From assembly GCA_007375595.1 (NCBI GenBank), contig VMEP01000001.1:557089-621088 (forward strand): a stretch of 64,000 nucleotides of DNA. The letters run 5' to 3'. The translations under genes and the position numbers were made by a program. The DNA is from Parcubacteria group bacterium LiPW_30 (GTDB lineage Bacteria > Patescibacteriota > Minisyncoccia > Phycocordibacterales > VMEP01). Under the pieces are notes generated by a model that was not told where the DNA came from, did not search any database, and worked only from the letters and a program-made list of their open reading frames with translations. Of the stretch, positions 3,078-50,354 are shown one piece after another (the first letter of the stretch is position 1; every line of letters starts with the position of its first letter).

Positions 3078-3087
3078 GTCTTAAGAG

Positions 3088-3153
3088 ACTAGTGAGCGTG
3101 GCGACGCGAGCTCGAGGAAATTTTCAGCAGAAAATTATCCGTGCTCTTAAGAC
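3088..3153. repeat. Copy of the dispersed MITE-like repeat family (core …GAGCTCGAGGAAATTTTCAGCAGAAAATTATCCGTG…), flanked by a direct CTTAAGA duplication
   Basis: Shares the AATTTTC-AGCA-GAAAATT hairpin and GCTCGCG/CACG flanks with the other copies listed below. CTTAAGA is present at both ends (3081-3087 and 3146-3152), which looks like a target-site duplication. Confidence 0.55.
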
Positions 3154-4135: not shown

Positions 4136-5526
4136 GAATCTATAACACGTTAACGAGAGATAAAACCTTTTTTGAGCCCATCAACCCGGGGGAGGTTTCA
4201 ATGTACCACTGTGGTCCAACGGTATATGACTATGCACACATCGGAAATATGCGGGCATATGTTTTTGCTGATATTTTAAGGAGGACCTTTGCGTGGAATG
4301 GATTTAAAGTAAAACAAATCATAAATATTACCGACGTTGGACACCCGTCTTCAGACGAAGACGATGGTGAAGACAAAATTGAAACTGCTTCAACAAGAGA
4401 GCACAAAACAGCAGAGGAAGTCGCAAAATTTTATACCGACGTTTTCTTTGGCGATTTAAAAAAATTAAACATAATAACGGAGAATACAATTTTTCCAAGG
4501 GCTTCAGAACATATTCCAGAACAAATAGAGCTCGTGCGCATTCTTGAAGAAAAAGGTTTTGCTTACAAAACAAGTAAGGGAATGTATTTTGATACCGCAA
4601 AATTCCCAAATTACGGGAAATTAGCGCTTCTTGATATAAAAAATTTACGCGAAGGAGCAAGAGTTGAAATTAATCCAGAAAAAAGAAACCCAACGGATTT
4701 TTCTCTTTGGAAATTATCCCCCGTCCCAGGAGTTCGCCAGCAAGAATGGGAATCACCTTGGGGTATTGGTTTCCCTGGTTGGCACATTGAATGTTCCGCG
4801 ATGTCGATGAAATATCTCGGGAATCATTTTGATATACATACTGGCGGGGTTGATCATATTTCAGTGCACCACACAAACGAAATTGCGCAATCTGAAGCCG
4901 CAACCGGCGAACCGCTCGCTAACTACTGGGTTCACTCAGCATTCTTAACTGTCGATGGACAGAAGATGGCGAAATCTTTAGGAAACTTTACGACCGTTAG
5001 TGATATTGAAAACAGTGAAATCTCTCCGCTCGCCTTTCGTTATTTCCTCTTGGGGGCAAGTTATCGCATGCCACTAAACTTTACATGGTCAGCACTTTCC
5101 GGCTCAGAAAAAACTCTTCAAGGAATTTATCGTGAAGCATCTCTCCTTAAAGAAGGTGGTGTGGCAGACGAAGAATATCGTTCAAAATTTCGTGATGTTA
5201 TAAACAACGACTTCAACACTCCTCAAGCCCTCGCCCTTGTTTTTGATCTTCTTCGTTCCCCTCTTTCTTCTGAAACAAAGCTCGCGACATTGTTTGATTT
5301 TGATAAAGTGCTCGGTATTGATATAGAAAAAGGGCGAAGCGCTTTCATGGCTAAAGACGCAAAAGAAGAAGATATTCCAATCCCTGTCAAAAACTTAGTA
5401 GATGAGCGTGAAATAGCAAGAACAAAACAAGACTTCGAAAGAGCCGACTTAATACGCGCAGAAATCGCTAAAATGGGCTATTTGGTGGACGATTCCCCAG
5501 AAGGACCGAAGGTGACCAAACGCTAA
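4126..5526 (+). CDS. cysS: Cysteinyl-tRNA synthetase
   Basis: CGPTVYDYAHIGN (HIGH motif) and KMAKSLGN (KMSKS motif). 466 aa. Confidence 0.9.
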   Translation: MAIRIYNTLTRDKTFFEPINPGEVSMYHCGPTVYDYAHIGNMRAYVFADILRRTFAWNGFKVKQIINITDVGHPSSDEDDGEDKIETASTREHKTAEEVAKFYTDVFFGDLKKLNIITENTIFPRASEHIPEQIELVRILEEKGFAYKTSKGMYFDTAKFPNYGKLALLDIKNLREGARVEINPEKRNPTDFSLWKLSPVPGVRQQEWESPWGIGFPGWHIECSAMSMKYLGNHFDIHTGGVDHISVHHTNEIAQSEAATGEPLANYWVHSAFLTVDGQKMAKSLGNFTTVSDIENSEISPLAFRYFLLGASYRMPLNFTWSALSGSEKTLQGIYREASLLKEGGVADEEYRSKFRDVINNDFNTPQALALVFDLLRSPLSSETKLATLFDFDKVLGIDIEKGRSAFMAKDAKEEDIPIPVKNLVDEREIARTKQDFERADLIRAEIAKMGYLVDDSPEGPKVTKR

Positions 5527-5629: not shown

Positions 5630-7000
5630 ATGGCACAATCAAAAGGAAGTTCAGTTCGTGTTCCACCGCAAAATATTGATTCTGAAAAGGCTCTTCTTGG
5701 GGCACTTATGGTGCGCGCGGATGCAATCAATGAAATCGTTGACTCAATTGAACCAGATTCTTTTTATGCAGAAAAGCATCGCATAATCTATAACGCAATT
5801 CGTGAACTCTTTGCTAAAAACGAACCAATAGATGTCATCACTGTTTCATCCCGCCTAAATGATAAAAACGACCTTGAACGCATCGGTGGTCGCGCGTATC
5901 TTGTTGAATTAATCAACACCGTTCCTTCAACATCAAACGTGCTCCATTATGCAAATCTCGTAGATAAGACGAGTATCTTGCGAAGGCTTATTGACGCCGC
6001 CGACCACATCTCTGATTTGGGTTTTACGGAATCAAAAGAGTTAGATCAAGTTTTAGACGAAGCCGAAAAAAAAATATTCGGTATTACAAATTCTCCAAAA
6101 GTTCACAAATTCGTAAATCTAAAAGATACATTAACCGAAGCATGGGAAAGACTCGATCATCTACATAAATCGGGCGATGAAATTCGTGGTGTTCCAACCG
6201 GATTTCCTGACCTTGATTTAAAGACTGCTGGTTTCCAAAAATCAGATTTAATTATTCTCGCTGCTCGCCCATCAATGGGTAAAACCGCTCTTGCTCTTGA
6301 TATCGCGCGAATGGCTGCAACTAAACACAATGTTCCGATTGGAATCTTTTCTCTTGAAATGAGCGCGCACCAATTAACCGACCGTATGCTTGCCGCAGAG
6401 TCGCGCGTTGATTCTTGGAAATTACGTACTGGTAAAATTACTGCTGACGAAGATTTTTCAAGACTACGTGATGCAATGAGCGTTCTGTCCAAAGCCCCGA
6501 TTTATATCGACGACCAAGCCGGTAACTCGATTCTTAAAATGCGTTCTGTTGCGCGAAGACTAAAAAGCGAACACGGTCTCGGCATGATTATTGTTGATTA
6601 CCTCCAGCTCATGACCACATCAAAGAATTACGACTCTATGGTGAATCAAGTGACAGAAATTTCCCGTTCCCTAAAGAGCCTTGCTCGCGAGCTTGATATC
6701 CCAGTTTTGGCCCTCTCACAGCTATCTCGTGCCGTGGAATCACGCGGTGGACGCCCTCGACTATCCGACCTACGTGATTCAGGTTCTATTGAACAAGACG
6801 CGGATTTGGTCATGTTTATTCATCGTGAAGATAAGTATAAAGACGATTCTGAACGACCAAACATCGCCGAAATTCTTATTGAAAAGCATAGAAATGGACC
6901 AACGGGTAAAATTGAATTGTATTTCGACGACAAAAAAACTACCTTCCTTCCGGTTGATAAAGGAGACTATGCAACACTTGATAAAGATAATGATTTTTAA
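5630..7000 (+). CDS. dnaB: Replicative DNA helicase DnaB
   Basis: 456 aa. Has the N-terminal DnaB domain (EKALLGALM…), Walker A (ARPSMGKT) and Walker B (IIVDYLQLM) of the RecA-like fold. Confidence 0.9.
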   Translation: MAQSKGSSVRVPPQNIDSEKALLGALMVRADAINEIVDSIEPDSFYAEKHRIIYNAIRELFAKNEPIDVITVSSRLNDKNDLERIGGRAYLVELINTVPSTSNVLHYANLVDKTSILRRLIDAADHISDLGFTESKELDQVLDEAEKKIFGITNSPKVHKFVNLKDTLTEAWERLDHLHKSGDEIRGVPTGFPDLDLKTAGFQKSDLIILAARPSMGKTALALDIARMAATKHNVPIGIFSLEMSAHQLTDRMLAAESRVDSWKLRTGKITADEDFSRLRDAMSVLSKAPIYIDDQAGNSILKMRSVARRLKSEHGLGMIIVDYLQLMTTSKNYDSMVNQVTEISRSLKSLARELDIPVLALSQLSRAVESRGGRPRLSDLRDSGSIEQDADLVMFIHREDKYKDDSERPNIAEILIEKHRNGPTGKIELYFDDKKTTFLPVDKGDYATLDKDNDF

Positions 7001-12241: not shown

Positions 12242-12337
12242 ACTTTAGTTTTTTCAGCATTTTCCCTGGTACCCGTGTATATCCTTAAATACATACATTG
12301 CGCGATGTTGTGTTTTTCTTTCTTTAGACACTAAGTT

Positions 12338-12606
12338 TTTATCTTTAAAAACATTGCGCAGACCGACGCTCAATTGCGATAAGTGAAGTAATTGAGAGAC
12401 GGAGGCTGTCGAGCCGAGTCGGGTGAGAAAGCGAAGAATGAAGCTTTCGCAAGGTCGGACTGAGCGAAGGCGAAGGAGACGGGGTCGCGAGTTTTGCTAG
12501 CAAGCAAAAACCTGTGACCACGCAAATTTCTAGCAAGAAATTATGCGTGGCGCGAGCATAGTAAAAACTTAGCAAAGTTTTATGCGTGTTTTTAAAGGTA
12601 AAAACA
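12338..12606. repeat. Composite, longest copy of the MITE-like repeat family, bounded by CTTTAAAAACA…TGTTTTTAAAG inverted repeats
   Basis: Contains three hairpin modules (TTTTGCTAGCAAGCAAAA, AAATTTCTAGCAAGAAATT, AAAACTTAGCAAAGTTTT) plus the GC-rich module (GGAGGCTGTCGAGCCGAG…GGGGTCGCGAG) that is shared with copies at 42943 and 43388. Confidence 0.6.
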
Positions 12607-12620
12607 AAAAAAGATACATT

Positions 12621-12649
12621 GACAAATCTCTGTTTTCTGTTATACTCCA
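12621..12649 (+). promoter_or_regulatory. Sigma70-like promoter (TTGACA-16 nt-TATACT)
   Basis: Consensus hexamers. The -35 region forms a 10-bp inverted repeat with the start-codon region (GACAAATCTC / GAGATTTGTC). Confidence 0.4.
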
Positions 12650-12675
12650 AAAAGATCAACTAGTGGAGATTTGTC

Positions 12676-12930
12676 ATGGCTACCACCGATTTCCAAAAAG
12701 AAATTGCTGGAAAAGTTTTTGATCAAATGGCGAAAGAGCATCTGACTTCCTTCGACGAAAAGAGGTACAGTCAAATCCTCTATCCCCTCCTCACTGCGAA
12801 CGGTGCGGTATCAGAAAGTCGCCCGTATCACTGGAGAGCAATCAAACCACTGGTGGAAAAGAAATTCAAAAACCACCAGAGCCTTGTGAAGCAACACAAA
12901 CTTCGATTCGCCGAATCTTGGGCGAAGTAA
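12676..12930 (+). CDS. Hypothetical protein encoded by a GC-rich orphan ORF
   Basis: 84 aa. SD GGAG. Terminator at 12962-12993. Confidence 0.4.
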   Translation: MATTDFQKEIAGKVFDQMAKEHLTSFDEKRYSQILYPLLTANGAVSESRPYHWRAIKPLVEKKFKNHQSLVKQHKLRFAESWAK

Positions 12931-16307: not shown

Positions 16308-16410
16308 AAGTTTATTCTATCAGGAGCAAAAGCATAATTTTTTTCTTCAAATCATATTTCCAAACCATAAAAATTTTCCAGACCCGGACTCATTTCTACT
16401 CCGCAAATTT

Positions 16411-16579
16411 ACATGGTCACAAGTCACTAAGTTTAATCCCTACAGAGACCGCGAGTACGCTTCGGTCACGAGTTACTAAGCATTTTGGCACCATTAGCAC
16501 CAAAATACAAAATACTCGCAGTTACGCCATATTGAAGGCTACGCCTACGTAATCTGTATGGTCACAAGTCACTAAGTTT
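16411..16579. repeat. Two 22-bp direct repeats (ATGGTCACAAGTCACTAAGTTT) 147 bp apart, inside the 400-bp non-coding spacer
   Basis: Exact copies at 16411-16432 and 16558-16579. Confidence 0.6.
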
Positions 16580-16598
16580 TTTGTTCGCACTTCGTACT

Positions 16599-16656
16599 CC
16601 AAAAAACGTAAGTGCTCGCGACCCCGCCTCGCGGTTTTGTCTGCTGACAAAACATC
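16599..16656. repeat. Copy of the MITE-like repeat family (GCTCGCGACCCCGCCTCGCGG-TTTTGTCTGCTGACAAAAC)
   Basis: Has both the hairpin module and the GC module. Confidence 0.45.
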
Positions 16657-16712
16657 GCTGTGGCTTCATTCGTCTAAAAAAGTGAAGTAGTTCACTTTTC
16701 CTTAACGCCGAA

Positions 16713-24570: not shown

Positions 24571-24640
24571 TTTTAAAAAACACGATAAAATTCTGCTGAA
24601 TTTTTCTCTACTCGCCTCGTCAGGCTCCGTAAGGTTTTTC
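24571..24640. repeat. Copy of the MITE-like repeat family (TTTTAAAAAACACGATAAAATTCTGCTGAATTTTT…GCTCCGTAAGG)
   Basis: Near-identical over ~40 bp to the copy at 50270. Confidence 0.55.
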
Positions 24641-24740
24641 AAAAGAAAAAGTCTTGGTTTTTTTAGAAAACACAAAAATAAGAAGAACAAATAAAAACCT
24701 TTAGTAAAGGAGTAAAAATTACCGAAACTAAAGTAAAACT

Positions 24741-27297: not shown

Positions 27298-28089
27298 TTA
27301 ACTATTTAAAACCTCAACAAGTTTTAAGTCCTGCATATTAAACGGCGTTGTAAGAAGAATCGTTTCAAACGGATCGCGCGGGTCATTCACAACAGCACCA
27401 ACGATGGCAATTAAAAACGGATTAAGCCCTAAAGAGACAACCTGTGCTCCGATAGGCACTTCAACATCTCGAGGAAGCTTAGCTTCAAAATTACCGTTAC
27501 CCAACCCGCGCAAAGAAACACTTATATTACCTCCCATAATTATTCCATCAGTTGTTTTCCCTGGAGAAGAAAATAATTCAACTTTTGAAGTCACATCTCC
27601 CGTATACATAACTTCGCCCACAACAGTCCCGCCATATGTTAAAACACGGTCTCCATTTTCAATACCACTATCAACCCCCACATCAAGCACGATAGTATCG
27701 TAAGGAGAACGATTCGGTTTTGCTATTATCGCCGCAAGTACTGATTTTTTTTCTGTTTTTCTACCCAAAACTTCTTTAAGCTCCATGTTTTCTTGTACCA
27801 ATCTATCTCTTTCTAAGGCGAGGGCCTCAAAACTAACGTGTTCTGCCTTTAGCCGTCCATTTTCTTCTGAAAGTGATCGTTTAAAATGTATCGCCGACCA
27901 AAATGAGGCAAAAAAACCACTAACGTTATCTTTGCTTTCAGAGACAAGCGCTAAAGAATTCTGTGTACTATTTCCAAGTCGAGCAACAGAGTCTTTACTA
28001 TAAATTCCAACCACGATGACAAGCACCAATACAAGTAGCGAAATTATGTTTCTAGAAAAATTTTTATTTTTATCTCGGTGGTAAATCAT
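27298..28089 (-). CDS. mreC: Rod shape-determining protein MreC
   Basis: TM helix, coiled coil, then beta-domains (…GDVTSKVELFSSPG…). Start is uncertain: the ORF track extends to 28152 with a GTG start. Confidence 0.65.
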   Translation of the reverse strand: MIYHRDKNKNFSRNIISLLVLVLVIVVGIYSKDSVARLGNSTQNSLALVSESKDNVSGFFASFWSAIHFKRSLSEENGRLKAEHVSFEALALERDRLVQENMELKEVLGRKTEKKSVLAAIIAKPNRSPYDTIVLDVGVDSGIENGDRVLTYGGTVVGEVMYTGDVTSKVELFSSPGKTTDGIIMGGNISVSLRGLGNGNFEAKLPRDVEVPIGAQVVSLGLNPFLIAIVGAVVNDPRDPFETILLTTPFNMQDLKLVEVLNS

Positions 28090-29125
28090 CTTGGTTTTCA
28101 ATAAGAATGTCGCGATGAATATCAAGGTCTTCCAAAATAATACCTGCTCCACGAGCCACAGCCGAAAGAGGGTCTTCTGCGATATAAACTGGAATTTTCA
28201 AAACGTTATTGAGGTATGGGGCAAGTCCTTGAATAAGCGCTCCACCTCCAACCAAAACAATACCGCGGTTCATTATATCGGAAGTTATTTCCGGTGGTGT
28301 TCGTTCAAGCACCTCTTTAACTGAATCCAAAAGGTTCCCGATAGATGATGATATTGCTTCTCTGATATCTGCGTCGGTAACAATAACTTCGCGTGGTAAT
28401 CCTGTTATCAGGTCGCGTCCTTTTATCGATGTTTCAATTGTGCTTCCAACATCAAAAACAGAACCAATGGCAATCTTTACGCCTTCGGCAGTCTTCTCCC
28501 CTATTAAAATTTTAAATTCATCACGAAGGTAAGAAATAATATCGTCATTTAATTTATCCCCGGCGATTTTTAGATTTTTTGAAGCAACAATACCACCAAG
28601 AGAAATGACTGCGATGTCGGTTGTGCCACCACCAATGTCTATAATCATAGAACCAACTGGTTCTTTTATCGGCATGCGAATTCCAATCGCAGCCGCCATC
28701 GGTTCCTCGACAATATGCACCTCACGAGCGCCGGCGTTCTTGGTGGCGTCATAAACCGCGCGAATCTCAACGTTCGTAATTCCAGAAGGCACTCCAACAA
28801 CAACACGGGGGCGAATTGGTTTTTGGGCAATACGATCAGCCTTATTTATAAGATAAGCAATCATTTCTTCTGTTACCTCAAAATCAGAAATAACACCATC
28901 AACAAGTGGCCTTATTGCCTTAATGTGTCCCGGGGTACGTCCAAGCATTTGTTTTGCTTCAGCGCCAACGGCTACCACCTGCCCTGTTTTTTGATTAACA
29001 GCAACAACCGATGGCTCATTGATAACAATCCCGTGCCCCTTTAAATAAACAAGGGTGTTAGCGGTACCAAGATCGATACCGATATCGTTTGAGAAAACTG
29101 CATACATTTTATCGAATAATTTCAT
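28070..29125 (-). CDS. mreB: Rod shape-determining protein MreB
   Basis: MYAVFSNDIGIDLGTANTLVY… and actin-fold motifs. 351 aa. Confidence 0.9.
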   Translation of the reverse strand: MKLFDKMYAVFSNDIGIDLGTANTLVYLKGHGIVINEPSVVAVNQKTGQVVAVGAEAKQMLGRTPGHIKAIRPLVDGVISDFEVTEEMIAYLINKADRIAQKPIRPRVVVGVPSGITNVEIRAVYDATKNAGAREVHIVEEPMAAAIGIRMPIKEPVGSMIIDIGGGTTDIAVISLGGIVASKNLKIAGDKLNDDIISYLRDEFKILIGEKTAEGVKIAIGSVFDVGSTIETSIKGRDLITGLPREVIVTDADIREAISSSIGNLLDSVKEVLERTPPEITSDIMNRGIVLVGGGALIQGLAPYLNNVLKIPVYIAEDPLSAVARGAGIILEDLDIHRDILIENQDDLPPR

Positions 29126-30503: not shown

Positions 30504-30998
30504 ATGAGCATGAGTCCCGTTTTAATTGCTGGCAATCACCGTAGCAGTGTAGTGCCAGCAACATTTCTTTTGCTGATTTTTGCGCTCGGCTTGGCGACCA
30601 TGCACGAAAATCGCACGTTGATTCAATTGGCGCTTGTCCTAATTTTTGGGGCATCATGGAGTAGCGCGCTGTGGGGACGAGTTGGAGGAATCCGCTCCGC
30701 GCAAGAAGAACTCAGCCATCCGATACCCCTCATTGGAAATTATGACAATCTTCACCCGTTCATGAAAGTCGGGGGACGGTACGAGGTTCTCGCCAAAATC
30801 GACAACGTTGAGGGATACGATGGTCCATTTTTCATGCTTCGTTCCTATAGCCCAAGCGTAGTCCTGAGGAAAAGGCCGATTTTCTACGCTTGGGCAACAA
30901 AAAACGAATGTCTCCCCCACTCCTTTCGGGTGATCAAAGGATCGTTCGACGACGGGGAAAAAATCGAAACGTCCTTCCTCTTCAAGGAAACCACGTAG
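30504..30998 (+). CDS. Hypothetical membrane protein encoded by a GC-rich orphan ORF
   Basis: 164 aa. Two N-terminal TM helices plus a soluble domain. SD GGAG. GC about 52%. Terminator at 31019-31052. Confidence 0.5.
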   Translation: MSMSPVLIAGNHRSSVVPATFLLLIFALGLATMHENRTLIQLALVLIFGASWSSALWGRVGGIRSAQEELSHPIPLIGNYDNLHPFMKVGGRYEVLAKIDNVEGYDGPFFMLRSYSPSVVLRKRPIFYAWATKNECLPHSFRVIKGSFDDGEKIETSFLFKETT

Positions 30999-32786: not shown

Positions 32787-32858
32787 TTTAAAAACGCGCA
32801 TAAAACTTTGCTAAGTTTTTGCTATGCTCGTGCCGTCGCACTACGCAATGTTTTTAAA
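32787..32858. repeat. Copy of the MITE-like repeat family (CTTTAAAAACGCGCATAAAACTTTGCTAAGTTTTTGCTATGCTCG…GCAATGTTTTTAAA)
   Basis: TIR TTTAAAAAC. Near-identical to the 12545-12606 segment in reverse complement. Confidence 0.6.
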
Positions 32859-32893
32859 TATAAATGTCGCGTTTTTAAAAAAGAAAAACAGCC

Positions 32894-33442
32894 CTACTTT
32901 TGGGCTGTTTTGGAGCGTATCGTCACTTTAAGATCAGATACTAGTTTGCCTTTGGAAGTAACAAGCTCTTCAATTTTTCTTATTTCAGCCTGGGCCACTT
33001 GTATTCGCTTTTCTTGTAGTTTTTTTCTTAACTCAAGGCGTGAAATTTGCCCATCAAGTAAAGCTAGCCTTCTCTCGTCTTCTATCCCTCCAGTACGTTC
33101 CCATGTTTCCTTCGCTTGCTCATTTATTTTTTTGGACAAAGATTTTAGAGCTTCGCGAAACTCAAATACAGATAGGTTGCAATTATTCATAACGACCGAA
33201 ACACTTAATACTCGGCGGTTGGTAAGTCTATACCTCAAATATGTTTTCTCGTCACCCCCCTCGACAAGTAAATCTTTCGTATTGGCCATCTTGTCATAAT
33301 TTACCAAAACAACACTAAAATTACCTTCCTTTATTCCACATTTTTGGAAAAGGATAGAAATTGCCTTAATTATGACCTCCGGGGGGAAATATTCTCGCTT
33401 CCAAGAATATTTTTCATAATCAACGCTTATCTTGATATCCAT
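32894..33442 (-). CDS. Hypothetical protein (N-terminal alpha/beta domain plus C-terminal coiled coil)
   Basis: 182 aa, no diagnostic motif. Terminator hairpin overlaps the stop at 32882-32908. Confidence 0.45.
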   Translation of the reverse strand: MDIKISVDYEKYSWKREYFPPEVIIKAISILFQKCGIKEGNFSVVLVNYDKMANTKDLLVEGGDEKTYLRYRLTNRRVLSVSVVMNNCNLSVFEFREALKSLSKKINEQAKETWERTGGIEDERRLALLDGQISRLELRKKLQEKRIQVAQAEIRKIEELVTSKGKLVSDLKVTIRSKTAQK

Positions 33443-33512: not shown

Positions 33513-34211
33513 TTAAACCGTAATCGCTAAATATTCCACAATCATTTTTATTGAAGGTGAACGATCGTTTAAATAGCCACGTAATTTTATTACTGTTTCA
33601 AGAGTAGCCACCTCTTCTTTTGATATCACTCTTTCGTTTATTTTTCTACCAAGGGCAACTTGGAGATTATCTATAAAAACAATTGTCTTCTCGCGATCTT
33701 TGTCAGTGATAAGTTTTTTTATAAATGGCATTTGTAAACGCGAAGTTGGTTCGCTTTTCAAAAACTTTTCGACAATCTCCCCCATCTCGGTATCTTCATA
33801 AAAATCATTTTTATTTTTTGAAACAATAACCATTCTTGAACGTAAAGTTGGAAGAATAGTTCTCGCATCCTTAATAACAACAAAAAAATGAGTCATTTCT
33901 GTTGGTTCTTCAAAAACCTTAAGCAATGAATTCTGCGCCTCTCTTGTAAAAGCCCCCGCTGAAACCACGAATATTTTACGCTCACTTCCAAAGGTCTTTT
34001 CTGATTGCTTACGCTTCAATTCCCTGCTTTCATCAATGCCAAGCGTCTCGTAATGAGCAACGAAAAAATCTGGATTACCCAAACTAACAATTCCAAAACC
34101 ATTTTCTATTTCCAAAACAAGTTCAGCTAAGGCGCTTTCTTCTTCGCCTTCAATCAAATAAGCATGATGTATGTTCCCTGTTTTCTTAAATTCTTGAAAT
34201 ATAGATTTCAT
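33513..34211 (-). CDS. holB: DNA polymerase III delta'-like clamp-loader subunit (short form)
   Basis: HAYLIEG without a P-loop, LLKVFEEP, TLRSR (SRC-like) motifs. 232 aa. Confidence 0.6.
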   Translation of the reverse strand: MKSIFQEFKKTGNIHHAYLIEGEEESALAELVLEIENGFGIVSLGNPDFFVAHYETLGIDESRELKRKQSEKTFGSERKIFVVSAGAFTREAQNSLLKVFEEPTEMTHFFVVIKDARTILPTLRSRMVIVSKNKNDFYEDTEMGEIVEKFLKSEPTSRLQMPFIKKLITDKDREKTIVFIDNLQVALGRKINERVISKEEVATLETVIKLRGYLNDRSPSIKMIVEYLAITV

Positions 34212-34251
34212 ATTTACCTAAAAATTTTATATATCTTTTTTTAAAATACCC

Positions 34252-34324
34252 TTAAAAAACACGTATAATTTTCTGCTGAAAATTTACTATGCTCGCGCCG
34301 GTCGCGCTCCGCAATGTTTTTTAA
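34252..34324. repeat. Copy of the MITE-like repeat family with a perfect 10-bp TIR (TTAAAAAACA…TGTTTTTTAA)
   Basis: Core CACGTATAATTTTCTGCTGAAAATTTACTATGCTCGCGCC. Confidence 0.6.
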
Positions 34325-34387
34325 TGGTATTTTGTGATATTTAAATTCAAAAAAAGTGTTTTTAAAAAGGAAAAGTAAAAAATAAAG

Positions 34388-35401
34388 CTATCTCTTGGCA
34401 ATTATTGATTTTTTGTAAACATCCAGGTGCTCAAGGGCGATTCCTGTTCCTTTTGCCACACAATACAAAGGGTCTTCGGCCATCATCGCCTTAACTCCAG
34501 TGCGACGAAAAACAAGTTCTGGAAAATTACGGAGCATAGAAGTTCCTCCAGTCATGATAATCCCGTTGTCTATAATATCTGCCGAAAGTTCTGGTGGGGT
34601 ATCTTGGAGAACATCTTTAATCGCCTTCACCATCTGTCTTAATTCTTTATCAATTGCCTTAACAATTTCGTTAGTAGAAATTTGAGCAGTGCGAGGTAAC
34701 CCCGCAATAAAATCTCGACCCTTTATTGTCATAGTGAGTTCTTCATCCATTGGCGTTGCCGAACCAATTTGAATTTTTATATCTTCCGCGGTTTTATCTC
34801 CAATTGCCAAATTAAATGTCTTTTTAATGTAGTCCGTAATGGCGGCATCGATGCGATTGCCCGCGCACTTAACCGAGTTTGAGGCAACGATTCCACCAAG
34901 AGAGATAACTGCAACGTCTGTCGTCCCTCCACCAATGTCCACTACCATATGCCCTCTTGGTTCATGGATAGGAATTCCCGCGCCAATAGCCGCAAGAATT
35001 GGCTCTTTAACAACATAAGCATTCTTTGCTCCAGCTTTAATTGCGGCCTCAACGACCGCACGGCGTTCTGTAGAACTTACTCCTGCTGGTACCGAAACCA
35101 TCACCTCTGGTTTAAAAATACTAAAACGTCCCATCGCTTTACCTATGTAATAACGAAGCATCGCTTCGGTCACGCGATAATCAGCGATAACACCATCTCG
35201 CATCGGACGATACGCAATAATACTGTCTGGTGTTTTTCCAATCATTTCTTTAGCTTCAATACCAACCGCTAAAATTTTATTTTCTTGTTCCGAAACAGCA
35301 ACAACCGATGGCTCATTCAAAACAATCCCTTTGCCAGGCAAGTACACGAGTGTGTTTGCGGTACCCAAATCTATTCCTAATTTTTTTGTAAAAAATGACA
35401 T
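34388..35401 (-). CDS. mbl: MreB/Mbl-like actin homolog (second paralog)
   Basis: LGIDLGTANTLVYLPGKGIVLNEPSVVAV… 337 aa. Confidence 0.85.
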   Translation of the reverse strand: MSFFTKKLGIDLGTANTLVYLPGKGIVLNEPSVVAVSEQENKILAVGIEAKEMIGKTPDSIIAYRPMRDGVIADYRVTEAMLRYYIGKAMGRFSIFKPEVMVSVPAGVSSTERRAVVEAAIKAGAKNAYVVKEPILAAIGAGIPIHEPRGHMVVDIGGGTTDVAVISLGGIVASNSVKCAGNRIDAAITDYIKKTFNLAIGDKTAEDIKIQIGSATPMDEELTMTIKGRDFIAGLPRTAQISTNEIVKAIDKELRQMVKAIKDVLQDTPPELSADIIDNGIIMTGGTSMLRNFPELVFRRTGVKAMMAEDPLYCVAKGTGIALEHLDVYKKSIIAKR

Positions 35402-50269: not shown

Positions 50270-50354
50270 TTTTGCTGATAAAAAACACGATAAAATTCTG
50301 CTGAATTTTTCTATACTCGCGCCAAGCGCTCCGTAATGTTTTTTATCAGCAAAA
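50270..50354. repeat. Copy of the MITE-like repeat family with a perfect 18-bp TIR (TTTTGCTGATAAAAAACA…TGTTTTTTATCAGCAAAA)
   Basis: Core CACGATAAAATTCTGCTGAATTTTTCTATACTCGCGCC. Confidence 0.65.

Follow-up and report, generated by a model that had tools for sequence, protein, structure and literature searches.

A widespread structured repeat family of Patescibacteria that appears to occupy hairpin loops

Introduction

Patescibacteria have streamlined genomes of about 1 Mb. A 64,000-nucleotide stretch of one of them, from Parcubacteria group bacterium LiPW_30 (hereafter the window), contains a composite hairpin repeat at 12338-12606 with relatives in other spacers. The original prediction described these copies as a MITE-like family and named two possibilities: relics of nonautonomous transposons, or a structured regulatory or RNA element. 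The question is what is conserved in these repeats, where they sit among genes and genomes, and which identity this leaves for them.

Results

Eight related loci in the window

Two covariance models, R1 and R2, detected eight strong repeat loci with 11-12 hairpin modules in the window (Table 1), a density of approximately one copy per 8 kb. The E-values across these loci were 1e-6 to 6e-21 with nhmmer, the copy at 42943 being the weakest (8e-3), 2e-10 to 4.5e-25 with R1 and 4.5e-5 to 6e-19 with R2. The predicted folds are three-way junctions throughout and are far stronger than those of shuffled sequence (z -2.6 to -12). The predicted family, dispersed, non-coding and hairpin-forming, is thus supported at eight loci by nhmmer, R1 and R2; "at least 10 copies" fails as a count, and is replaced by the eight loci with their modules plus one divergent relative (43186-43269).

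As predicted, every copy is intergenic, and housekeeping genes lie on either side. The "GC-rich orphan ORFs" noticed beside several copies are spurious frames crossing the GC-rich modules. Four copies lie on each strand, the GC skew is uniform, and only at 50278-50346 does the folding strand run antisense to the neighbouring genes. The string at 16599-16656, originally counted as a copy, is marginal in both models: the order of its two recognizable parts, GCGACCCCGCCTCGCG and a TTTTGTC-TGCT-GACAAAA hairpin, is not that of the family, and the region is probably a decayed or rearranged relative at best.

Table 1. Members of the repeat family and associated features in the window. T2, palindrome-capping copies; T1, copies beside tRNA, tmRNA or rplL genes; hp1 and hp2, the two hairpins of the core. 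Strands refer to CACG..TGCT (orientation A), the complement being the inferred folding strand.
Feature	Position	Strand	Structure and site	R1	R2	Fold z
Eight window loci (starts as first predicted)	3088, 12338-12606, 24571, 32787, 34252, 42943, 43388, 50270		Related dispersed family
T2 copy	3079..3151	-	Core hp1 + hp2; arms TTTTCGTCTTAAGAG / CTCTTAAGACAAAAA; divergent spacer, S41 peptidase gene / corA	71.4 bits, E 1.3e-20	E 2.5e-8	-4.6 (three-way junction)
Composite copy	12338..12606	-	Outer element T2; arms TTTAAAAACA / TGTTTTTAAA; hp1 12561-12585	12531-12596, E 4.4e-13	12448-12522, E 3.4e-8; 12391-12439, E 5e-4; also 12523-12545, 12561-12585
Doubtful relative	16557..16662	+	55 nt downstream of tRNA-Glu	Hairpin alone, E 2.3	16.4 bits, E 0.085
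T2 copy	24573..24642	+	greA-lysS spacer; 19-bp arms	72 bits, E 8e-21		-5.6
T2 copy, CGCG variant	32787..32858	+	hp1 stem AAAACTT/AAGTTTT; spacer indel ORF/frr	77.5 bits, E 1.4e-22		-4.6
T2 unit, ~112-118 nt	34237..34354	+	Core 34252-34324; arms AAAATACCCTTAAAAAACA / TGTTTTTTAATGGTATTTT; spacer of mreB / holB-like gene	85.2 bits, E 4.5e-25		-5.9
T1 copy	42903..43026	-	Upstream of tRNA-Asn; core 42936-43009	E 2e-10	79.6 bits, E 2e-16	-5.8
tRNA-Asn (GTT)	43039..43113	+	ARAGORN; Rfam tRNA 73.2 bits
Divergent relative	43167..43287	-	Two hairpins, loops UAGC + GACG; 13-bp closing stem; -77 kcal/mol	E 0.086	43186-43269, 24 bits, E 1.5e-3	-12.2
T1 copy	43375..43467	-	Downstream of tRNA-Asn; core 43378-43455	E 9e-15	90.5 bits, E 6e-19	-2.6
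T2 copy	50278..50346	+	Perfect 20-bp arms GCTTTTGCTGATAAAAAACA / TGTTTTTTATCAGCAAAAGC; spacer RRM-protein gene / unannotated ORF	58.9 bits, E 1.5e-16		-7.5

A two-hairpin core that folds on one strand

The conserved part is a core of 55-65 nt with two hairpins, an AT-rich hp1 and a GC-rich hp2. On the CACG strand, hp1 has an invariant C-TGCT-G loop and a bulged T; the AATTTTC-TGCT-GAAAATT hairpin that drew attention to the family was correctly recognized, its stem covarying and its loop invariant, and the GC-rich module is hp2 with its extensions. On the folding strand, hp1 forms 10-17 bp with a bulged base and an invariant C-AGCA-G loop, to which T1 copies add an invariant G.U pair, and hp2 forms a GC-rich stem with a purine-rich internal loop. 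The core is always at the apex of a longer stem, so that this closing stem of 10-40 bp turns the whole into a Y-shaped three-way junction. The stem may be an intergenic palindrome (T2), a T-arm-like hairpin formed from part of the copied end of an adjoining tRNA, tmRNA or rplL gene (T1) or, as in the composite, the loop of hp2 in a further copy.

The composite at 12338-12606 was predicted as such, and both models place its modules in a nested arrangement. The hp2 loop of the outer T2 element contains an additional hp1-like hairpin (12523-12545), a T1-like unit (12448-12522), which has an expanded hp2 (12391-12439), and, as a separate module, another hairpin. These modules occur singly in L064 and L076.

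Base changes follow the pairing. In the T2 alignment, hp1 pair 13:35 is CG in 31 copies, GC in 11, UA in 5 and AU in 5, and the pairs of hp2 show 5-25 double changes each. In the T1 alignment, 88.6% of cells are paired as opposed to 73.9% after shuffling, with a covariation score of 0.352 against 0.092; none of 500 shuffles scored as high, and slid controls reached at most 0.068. The strand can be read from the wobble pairs. Among non-Watson-Crick pairs in the closing arms, A.C-type pairs outnumber G.T-type pairs by 42 to 14 on the CACG strand, and one hp1 pair is A.C in 42/42 T1 copies, that is, G.U on the complement. The asymmetry identifies a single folding strand, namely the complement of the one with CACG...TGCT.

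The arms vary among the window copies and among 42 loci. Many loci have arms of their own, one subfamily has its arms in common, and the paired arms covary; the orthologue of copy 3079-3151 in L076, for instance, has arms with a compensatory change. What had been taken for "perfect TIRs" is the closing stem of the fold, with copy-to-copy differences and compensatory substitutions. The CTTAAGA strings at 3088, previously read as a target-site duplication, belong to the inverted arms GTCTTAAGAG / CTCTTAAGAC; they are no direct duplication, because CTTAAG is itself palindromic and both strings fall within these arms. Core conservation across lineages, together with covariation and a strand-specific wobble bias, would not be expected of a decaying transposon relic.

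Spread across Patescibacteria

The family is not confined to the window. In species-representative genomes, matches to an exact 20-base core pattern occur in more than 118 genome stretches. Patescibacteria MAGs account for 117 of these, and bar one chance-like match, all matches are in such MAGs. They cover Nomura-, Taylor-, Kaiser-, Zambryski-, Vogel-, Wildermuth- and Uhrbacteria, WWE3, Paceibacterota and others, and the core sequence is nearly identical in distant lineages. R1 made 132 matches over the 99 loci searched, among them approximately 30 copies beyond those with the pattern.

No known riboswitch or leader family accounts for the repeat. At the gathering cut-off, Rfam 15 found two tRNAs and nothing else in the whole window, and at permissive E-values it returned hairpin-type noise far below the cut-offs in 12250-12700, 42850-43550 and 34150-34420; known RNA families were discarded on this basis. 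A search of full-text literature found no description of the family. Viral contigs (IMG/VR) held only two core matches, one of which was inspected and lies in a coding region, so phage carriage was rejected.

Several other identities were also set aside. Pneumococcal BOX/RUP was suggested by GC content and modular build, but the host is a Parcubacteria MAG and the sequences are unrelated. A promoter (TATAAT-like CGTATAAT, TTGCGC) does not fit, as the spacing is inconsistent and changes at the variable base are matched by changes in its pairing partner. The junction sequences are by eye unlike the hammerhead core, and Rfam gave nothing for this or another small ribozyme. An intrinsic terminator was rejected on the random orientation and spacer type of T2 and on the T-run, whose usual place on the CACG strand is before the stem rather than after it. 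Integron attC sites, with R''/R' boxes RYYYAAC...GTTRRRY around cassettes next to intI, do not fit either: some arms end in AAAAAAC...GTTTTTT, most end otherwise (GGAG, GGGC etc.), and the neighbours are housekeeping genes rather than cassettes.

Palindrome-capping copies differ between related genomes

T2 copies sit at the tip of intergenic palindromes, which are often unique to their locus. Their orientation relative to genes is random (28 sense, 31 antisense), and their spacers (59 co-directional, 11 convergent, 13 divergent) are much like the background of 373, 109 and 120. Inverted-orientation pairs of copies lie 100-180 nt apart in L053, L022, L019 and L076.

The copies are gained or lost between related genomes. 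The close relative L084 has other family members in the two spacers that match the window sites at 32787 and 34237. In the more distant L126/L127 both spacers are empty (49 nt for the 32787 site and 30 nt for the 34237 site), with zero copies in 13 kb. Arms ..GGACA / GTCC.. enclose the core in both L068 and L051, and the orthologous site of L099 is a short palindrome only. Arms can also travel with the core: the 112-nt unit of 34237-34354 recurs non-syntenically in L084, L053, L093 and L056 at 79-92% identity, with covarying arms. Clean filled/empty junctions were sought between L076 and L056 and between the window and L126, and none was found; the extent of the insert cannot be delimited, because the entire spacer differs at empty sites.

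No transposase, recombinase or reverse transcriptase could be linked to the copies. The genes around 117 loci (8 kb each) include no recurrent family, be it transposase, integrase or RT, the maximum being 7/117. The flanks of the arms in 42 well-defined copies show no consistent direct repeat and no target-site duplication. A third, T1-like arm copy near T2 is not enriched over controls, and the case in L084 (AAAATACC) is probably due to chance.

Short-read assemblies end within the repeats: a Logan contig of run SRR8863432, which encodes an identical LysS, terminates within the repeat at 24573-24642.

A second class lies beside tRNA, tmRNA and rplL genes

T1 copies adjoin tRNA, tmRNA or rplL genes, always in the sense of the gene. 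Of 56 copies, 27 have a tRNA or tmRNA gene no more than 200 nt away, against a background of 5%, and all 27 are in the sense of that gene. In L004 and L027 the gene is tmRNA, and in three lineages (L048, L064, L109) T1 directly follows the rplL stop codon. A hairpin-plus-T-run terminator often separates the tRNA from T1. This tRNA-linked class and its flanking tRNA-end copies had not figured in the original prediction.

The flanks of T1 are copies of the tRNA end from the T-loop on, one inverted and the other direct, in the order intact gene, spacer, inverted copy, core, direct copy; the core occupies the T-loop position in partial tRNA copies. Direct repeats of 13-29 nt that extend from the T-loop to the 3' end of the tRNA or tmRNA are present in 16/44 T1 versus 4/87 T2 copies. 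The repeat-to-repeat segment is approximately 100-190 bp long, gene-free and without an integrase.

In the window, the host gene is tRNA-Asn, whose ends are copied around the adjoining elements. In the upstream T1 (42903-43026), the core is accompanied by a 5' tRNA-Asn fragment TCCGGAGTAG (42903-42912), by a variable hairpin and by CCGCTGAGATACTCC, which copies the tRNA 5' end in inverted form. Its orthologue in L123 has compensatory changes in hp1, and contig L122 breaks off within it. The downstream T1 (43375-43467) runs from ACAGGATTCGAA, the inverted complement of the 3' part of the T-loop/T-stem, through the core to GAATCCTGTCTCCGAC, which repeats the tRNA 3' end in direct orientation; a 16-nt direct copy of the flank is present upstream, inside the tRNA. 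In the closing stem of the divergent relative between the gene and this copy, TCCGGAGACAGGATTCGAA matches the tRNA-Asn 3' end exactly as its inverted complement, and CGAACCTGTCTCCGGAGC copies this end directly.

Two explanations for the copied ends were rejected. A tRNA intron was modelled by approximately 130,000 in-silico deletions around the 56 T1 copies, which yielded no new tRNA, only the intact neighbours. An origin from mature tRNA via reverse transcription fails on CCA and flank evidence: the copies lack CCA where the gene lacks CCA and sometimes reach into the downstream flank, and therefore the tRNA end was duplicated at the DNA level.

Discussion

We propose, at a probability of about one half, that these copies belong to a family of structured, non-autonomous interspersed repeats found specifically in Patescibacteria, whose core is mobile among hairpin loops. 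On the best reading, the family is new, unusually widespread and an occupant of hairpin loops. The core would be a small mobile module that enters, or is lost from, the apical loops of hairpins. The mobilizing factor would be encoded elsewhere; we infer its existence, its nature and its targeting of hairpin loops. Either this factor or a single-stranded intermediate may need the fold and the loops, and we propose that they stay constant because of this requirement, the closing arms then co-evolving so as to remain complementary.

The hairpin-loop position is supported by the modules nested inside the hp2 loop of the composite and by the T1 cores at the T-loop position. Two observations qualify it. 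First, the short palindrome of L099 could be a deletion product instead of an ancestral empty hairpin, and the arms are not always pre-existing host hairpins, because one T2 subfamily brings its arms to new sites. Second, the T1 arrangement needs more than simple insertion into a loop. A hairpin as landing site has precedents in IS1397/ISKpn1, which enter REP loops, and in class C group II introns, which lie after terminator hairpins; the apical loops taken up by the core here belong to intergenic palindromes, T-arm-like hairpins or further copies. Those elements, however, are 1-2 kb long and have their own enzyme, whereas the module here is 55-65 nt long and non-coding.

A possible but somewhat doubtful alternative is a cis-acting RNA element of the host, in which the three-way junction, transcribed from the folding strand and recognized by a protein conserved in Patescibacteria, would be a signal for 3'-end formation, processing, stability or attenuation, recruited repeatedly after strongly expressed genes (tRNA, tmRNA, rplL) and between operon genes. 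The sense-only enrichment of T1 at tRNA and tmRNA genes and its place after the rplL stop codon speak for it, as do the invariant G.U pair and the purine-rich internal loops of the folding strand and the wobble asymmetry of the arms. The T1 upstream of tRNA-Asn in L123 keeps its fold via compensatory changes, and the core is near-identical between distant lineages; both agree with a host function no less well than with selfish spread. This explanation has difficulty with T2, which shows no preferred orientation with respect to the genes around it, is also found in divergent spacers, where it could not end a transcript (e.g., 3079-3151), and is missing from relatives with the same gene order. 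Moreover, a terminator hairpin and T-run frequently stand between the tRNA and T1 already, the folding strand has no T-run after the stem, and the repeats are not consistently associated with any gene.

T1 might instead be a remnant or component of the attachment sites used by integrative elements whose recombination takes place in the T-loops of tRNA and tmRNA, the tRNA 3'-end direct repeats being attL/attR and the core a part of the element's arm. As in such elements, the tRNA or tmRNA 3' end, from the T-loop on, is directly repeated around T1 (16/44 copies), tmRNA is also a target, and a short inverted T-stem copy adjoins the core as in core-type recombinase sites. We consider this unlikely: the "island" comprises only about 100-190 bp without genes or an integrase, many different tRNAs are involved, and the core interrupts the would-be core site, lying between the inverted and the direct copy where a 7-bp overlap alone is expected. 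No recurrent integrase is found nearby, viral contigs offer only the two matches mentioned above, and approximately 100 sites, the majority of the family, have the core without a tRNA.

The REP/BIME systems of Enterobacteria and Pseudomonas offer another comparison, in which a domesticated, RAYT/IS200-type HUH (Y1) transposase, encoded once in each genome, would recognize the hairpins and multiply them in single-stranded form as DNA. REPs are likewise short, imperfect, intergenic palindromes with a bulge and a foot tetranucleotide, tens to hundreds of copies strong, sometimes in inverted pairs, without target duplications and with a fold that matters on one strand. hp1 alone is REP-like, with its bulge and its conserved CACG/CGTG foot, and the inverted pairs of copies described above fit as well. 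The explanation is nevertheless improbable. A REP is a single hairpin of 20-40 nt and is species-specific; the Patescibacteria repeat is a two-hairpin three-way junction of 70-130 nt on a long stem, its core is common to the superphylum, and one subclass is linked to tRNA ends. No Y1 transposase or RAYT is present among the scanned ORFs of the window, which covers 64 kb of a 680-kb contig, no single gene family recurs in the 117 loci, and four window copies per strand under a uniform GC skew indicate no replication-direction bias.

Other known repeats share single features with the family. Correia elements (CREE/NEMIS, Neisseria) and ERIC/IRU (Enterobacteria) are long hairpins of 70-150 nt in housekeeping spacers with strain-variable presence; Correia elements, however, carry fixed 26-bp inverted repeats plus a TA duplication and do not occur outside one genus, whereas the repeat described here has variable termini, no visible duplication and a conserved apical core. 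BOX elements of Streptococcus pneumoniae (boxA-boxB-boxC) are intergenic, stable in predicted structure and modular with a variable number of internal modules, and the composite at 12338-12606 resembles a multi-module BOX; there is, however, no sequence similarity, and BOX is limited to one species group and has no tRNA linkage. We know of no reports of conserved BOX loops with stem covariation across phyla.

A classical MITE, an internally deleted DDE transposon with fixed TIRs and target-site duplications, agrees with short, dispersed, intergenic copies that have AT-rich ends and inverted repeats as their boundaries and with the one subfamily whose arms recur at different sites, but is largely refuted and very improbable, since no target-site duplication exists (the candidate at 3088 belongs to the palindrome), the arms are variable and covary, the internal core rather than the termini is conserved, and neither a recurrent ORF family in the 117 loci nor an element-like context in viral contigs was found. 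Of the original prediction, the dispersed, hairpin-forming repeat family stands, and its derivation as a TIR/TSD MITE from a transposon is not supported, there being no target-site duplication, variable TIRs and no recurrent transposase nearby.

The family has practical consequences. The repeats interrupt short-read assemblies of Patescibacteria and yield spurious GC-rich ORFs. The repeat is a possible sequence marker for Patescibacteria, and its covariance model could enter RNA-family libraries. The tRNA-end copies may be the trace of a mechanism that directs insertion to hairpins or T-loops, or of one that rearranges DNA at tRNA genes.

Selfish repeats are usually confined to one species. 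Invariant loops and covarying stems between lineages of only 35-60% protein identity are not expected of selfish DNA, and they point to a conserved partner protein or processing pathway in uncultured Patescibacteria. As a tentative possibility, the core may be a tiny mobile module that travels in the form of a folded RNA or DNA single strand into the apical loops of hairpins, including T-loops, via a Patescibacteria-wide factor, or else an undescribed, superphylum-wide signal for RNA processing or 3' ends. If either were true, the repeat would be a lineage-defining structured element with a reach comparable to that of a major RNA family.

Detection of the repeat family in the window

An nhmmer profile was built from six short copies, and the nine sites of the original prediction were read. 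Eight of them were recovered by the profile: seven copies had E-values between 1e-6 and 6e-21, and one, at 42943, had 8e-3. The copy at 16599 was marginal with both covariance models (R1 E 2.3; R2 E 0.085). These models were built from 56 cores of class T2, which sits at the tips of intergenic palindromes (R1), and from 42 cores of class T1, found near tRNA, tmRNA and rplL genes (R2), and the whole window was scanned with filters off. A dispersed family is indeed present, but R1 and R2 agree on eight loci rather than the claimed ten or more in 64 kb, with R1 E-values of 2e-10 to 4.5e-25. R2 adds two nested modules of the composite (12448-12522 and 12391-12439) and, at 43199-43273 with E 1.5e-3, a divergent relative. 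Each of the eight loci forms a Y-shaped three-way junction that greatly exceeds shuffled sequence in stability (z -2.6 to -12).

Family loci in the window on which R1 and R2 agree
Feature	Position	Strand	Models
Family locus	3079-3151	-	R1, R2
Family locus, composite	12338-12606	-	R1, R2
Family locus	24573-24642	+	R1, R2
Family locus	32787-32858	+	R1, R2
Family locus	34252-34324	+	R1, R2
Family locus	42936-43009	-	R1, R2
Family locus	43378-43455	-	R1, R2
Family locus	50278-50346	+	R1, R2

The CTTAAGA strings at 3088, taken earlier for a target-site duplication, belong to the inverted arms GTCTTAAGAG/CTCTTAAGAC, and a regular flanking duplication is absent around 42 well-defined copies; a classical MITE is a less likely reading of the family.

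Core structure and the folding strand

On strand A, which carries CACG...TGCT, the core runs closing arm, CA-CG, an AT-rich hairpin (hp1), CT, a GC-rich hairpin (hp2), closing arm. hp1 reads N-A-[bulged T]-AA-NN-TTC TGCT GAA-NN-TT-T-N', extended in T1 by GGTC...GACC, and hp2 is built of a short lower stem, the internal loop TC / T(C/G)C and a 4-5 bp GC stem capped mostly by CGTC. Across the aligned T2 cores, the base after CACG varies together with its pairing partner (CG31/GC11/UA5/AU5), and each hp2 pair has 5-25 double substitutions. T1 was scored on an explicit structure against 500 shuffles and with partners slid by 1-3 columns: paired cells reach 88.6% versus 73.9% in shuffles, and covariation is 0.352 versus 0.092, a value that 0/500 shuffles reach and that falls to at most 0.068 with slid partners.

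One hp1 position is A.C on strand A in 42/42 T1 copies, corresponding to a constant G.U pair on its complement, strand B, and the closing arms of 61 distinct elements hold, on strand A, 42 A.C-type versus 14 G.T-type non-canonical pairs among 1172 Watson-Crick pairs. Because of this wobble tolerance, strand B is probably the one whose fold is constrained, and the constraint would stand for RNA or single-stranded DNA alike.

Distribution

The exact pattern CACG(N)ATAANNTTCTGCTGAANNTT was searched in one-genome-per-species contigs. Far from being restricted to the window, the core matches more than 118 stretches among the matches listed, which are Patescibacteria MAGs except for one chance-like match; the MAG records bear the labels Nomura-, Taylor-, Kaiser-, Zambryski-, Vogel-, Wildermuth- and Uhrbacteria, WWE3, Spechtbacterales, Paceibacterota and 'Saccharibacteria'. 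Over 99 loci, R1 gives 132 hits, of which about 30 lie outside the pattern matches. IMG/VR yields two matches, and the one inspected falls in a coding region. No Rfam 15 family, riboswitch or leader included, matches the repeat, and no description of it was found in the literature searched.

Genomic context of the two classes

Context statistics were taken from 156 copies (56 T1, 100 T2) found by an nhmmer profile search of the collected loci and the window. T2 copies form the tip of near-perfect palindromes of 10-42 bp between genes; they show no preferred orientation where the flanking genes are co-directional (28 to 31), and their co-directional, convergent and divergent spacers (59/11/13) resemble the background (373/109/120). 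T1 lies no more than 200 nt from a tRNA or tmRNA gene in 27/56 copies versus 5% of the background, and T2 in 1/100 only. All 27 of these T1 copies have strand B in the sense of the gene, 20 downstream and 7 upstream, and in three lineages T1 follows the rplL stop codon. A tmRNA gene is followed by a sense T1 within 70-125 nt in two different MAGs (L004, 5274-5677 with 5746-5818, where T1 is followed by 20 nt copied from the tmRNA 3' end; L027, 4144-4531 with 4608-4687).

The window is a bacterial chromosome segment (rpoC, dnaB, dnaG, priA, lysS, cysS, sufB, two PBP genes), and nothing unusual lies beside the copies, whose neighbours are frr, a holB-like gene, mreB, greA, lysS, yqeY, an RRM protein, corA and a HIT protein. 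Near the elements, no protein family turns up repeatedly, and a REP/RAYT-type system is less likely. Opposite-orientation pairs 100-180 nt apart, with nothing coding between, recall BIME-type pairs (L053 3535-3790, L022 6331-6580, L019 6686-6884, L076 6354-6608).

Several further features were seen in the window. A near-consensus sigma-70 promoter (12611-12640; TTGACA, 17 nt, TATACT) directly follows the composite, with an ATG 35 nt on at 12676; thus the composite is upstream of the promoter and not in a 5' UTR. A 35-nt direct repeat, D15 (32853-32887 and 34340-34374, 77% identical, TTTAAAT..GTGTTTTTAAAAA.GAAAA), directly follows two T2 copies and includes CGCGTTTTTAAA, the reverse complement of a T2 left arm with CGCG, so that D15 is probably what is left of another, inverted copy that was truncated. 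Direct repeat D1 of 104 nt (28997-29100 / 35294-35397) is outside the family, being conserved coding sequence of two mreB paralogues (28070-29125 and 34388-35401) about 6 kb apart.

Copied tRNA ends beside T1

Downstream T1 copies are arranged as follows: intact tRNA, a spacer that is often a terminator hairpin, the 3' part of the T-loop/T-stem as an inverted copy, the core, and a direct copy from the T-loop to the tRNA 3' end. This direct copy (13-29 nt) accompanies 16/44 T1 versus 4/87 T2, and the arrangement occurs twice after the window tRNA-Asn (43167-43287 and 43375-43467). The inverted copy derives from the 3' strand, whose complement it is, and not from the 5' T-stem; ACAGGATTCGAA matches the reverse complement of TTCGAATCCTGT exactly, and at locus L078 a T-stem G.U pair tells the two origins apart. 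Upstream T1 copies sit within partial tRNA copies, as at L050, where 45 nt identical to the 5' part of tRNA-Lys precede T1, CGATCCCC and the intact gene, in this order; removing T1 in silico never restored a tRNA. Since the copies are without CCA where the gene is without it, the ends were duplicated at the DNA level. Remnants of integrative-element attachment sites are a less likely reading of T1.

At 43092-43185, the tRNA-Asn 3' end and 11 nt of trailer, together with an inverted copy further downstream, make up a palindrome of about 29 bp with a small hairpin at its tip; therefore, the mature 3' end could pair with its own trailer. A perfect 17-bp hairpin at 43294-43330 (AAAAACTTTAGACCCCT / AGGGGTCTTTAGTTTTT), flanked by an A-run and, opposite, a T-run, shows that this genome also has long bidirectional terminator-like palindromes that lack the core. 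Downstream of tRNA-Glu, a 29-nt direct repeat, AAT(T/C)T(A/G)(C/T)ATGGTCACAAGTCACTAAGTTT, occurs at 16406-16434 and 16551-16579 (90% identical, 145 nt apart), and CCCTACAGAGA between the two is a tRNA-Glu 3' end copy on the opposite strand; the region looks like a further case of rearranged tRNA ends.

Gain and loss among relatives

Locus L084 is colinear with 28.5-37.3 kb of the window at 86-99% identity. Both spacers are filled there by different family members, with one hp1 stem changed at at least four pairs. Loci L126/L127 hold no family copy in 13 kb, and their mreB-holB and holB-frr spacers measure 30 and 49 nt (MreB 98% identical to the window, DNA 72-80%). In an orthologous trio, L068 and L051 hold the core between ..GGACA and GTCC.., where L099 has a short palindrome only; the long arms of L068 and L051 differ from each other, and each pair is still self-complementary. 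L053, L093 and L056, loci with no neighbour genes in common with the window, hold the unit of about 112 nt from 34237-34354 at 79-92% identity, and the differences in its arms are compensatory. The relatives L122/L123 also have the T1 that lies upstream of tRNA-Asn; its hp1 has changed in a compensatory way, and its G.U pair is kept. Public short-read contigs terminate inside the repeats.

Two segments of about 600 bp are missing from the close relative L084 (30443-31010 and 32859-33495, the latter adjoining the repeat at 32787-32858). Each has one unannotated ORF, 30504-30998 (+) and 32894-33442 (-), with no significant Pfam match and one weak AAA_13 hit far below threshold.

Discussion

We propose, with a probability of about one half, that the family is a non-autonomous structured repeat whose conserved core lies in the apical loop of hairpins. 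The host hairpins would be intergenic palindromes, T-arm-like tRNA-fragment hairpins and, in the composite, the hp2 loop of other copies; the core would be targeted to hairpin loops, and a trans-acting factor may take part. The main rival, a host signal acting as RNA in 3'-end formation or processing, would account for the strictly sense orientation of T1, the fold retained at an orthologous locus and the extremely conserved loops; however, the random orientation of T2, its copies in divergent spacers and the empty orthologous sites speak against it, and we consider it unlikely.

REP/BIME, Correia, ERIC and BOX are structured interspersed repeats, and this family is of that known kind. In contrast to them, its core has two hairpins, it is conserved superphylum-wide, its conserved part is the apex and not the termini, and it has a tRNA-end-linked subclass. 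It is a serious possibility, though less likely than not, that the family reflects a so far undescribed mechanism or function.
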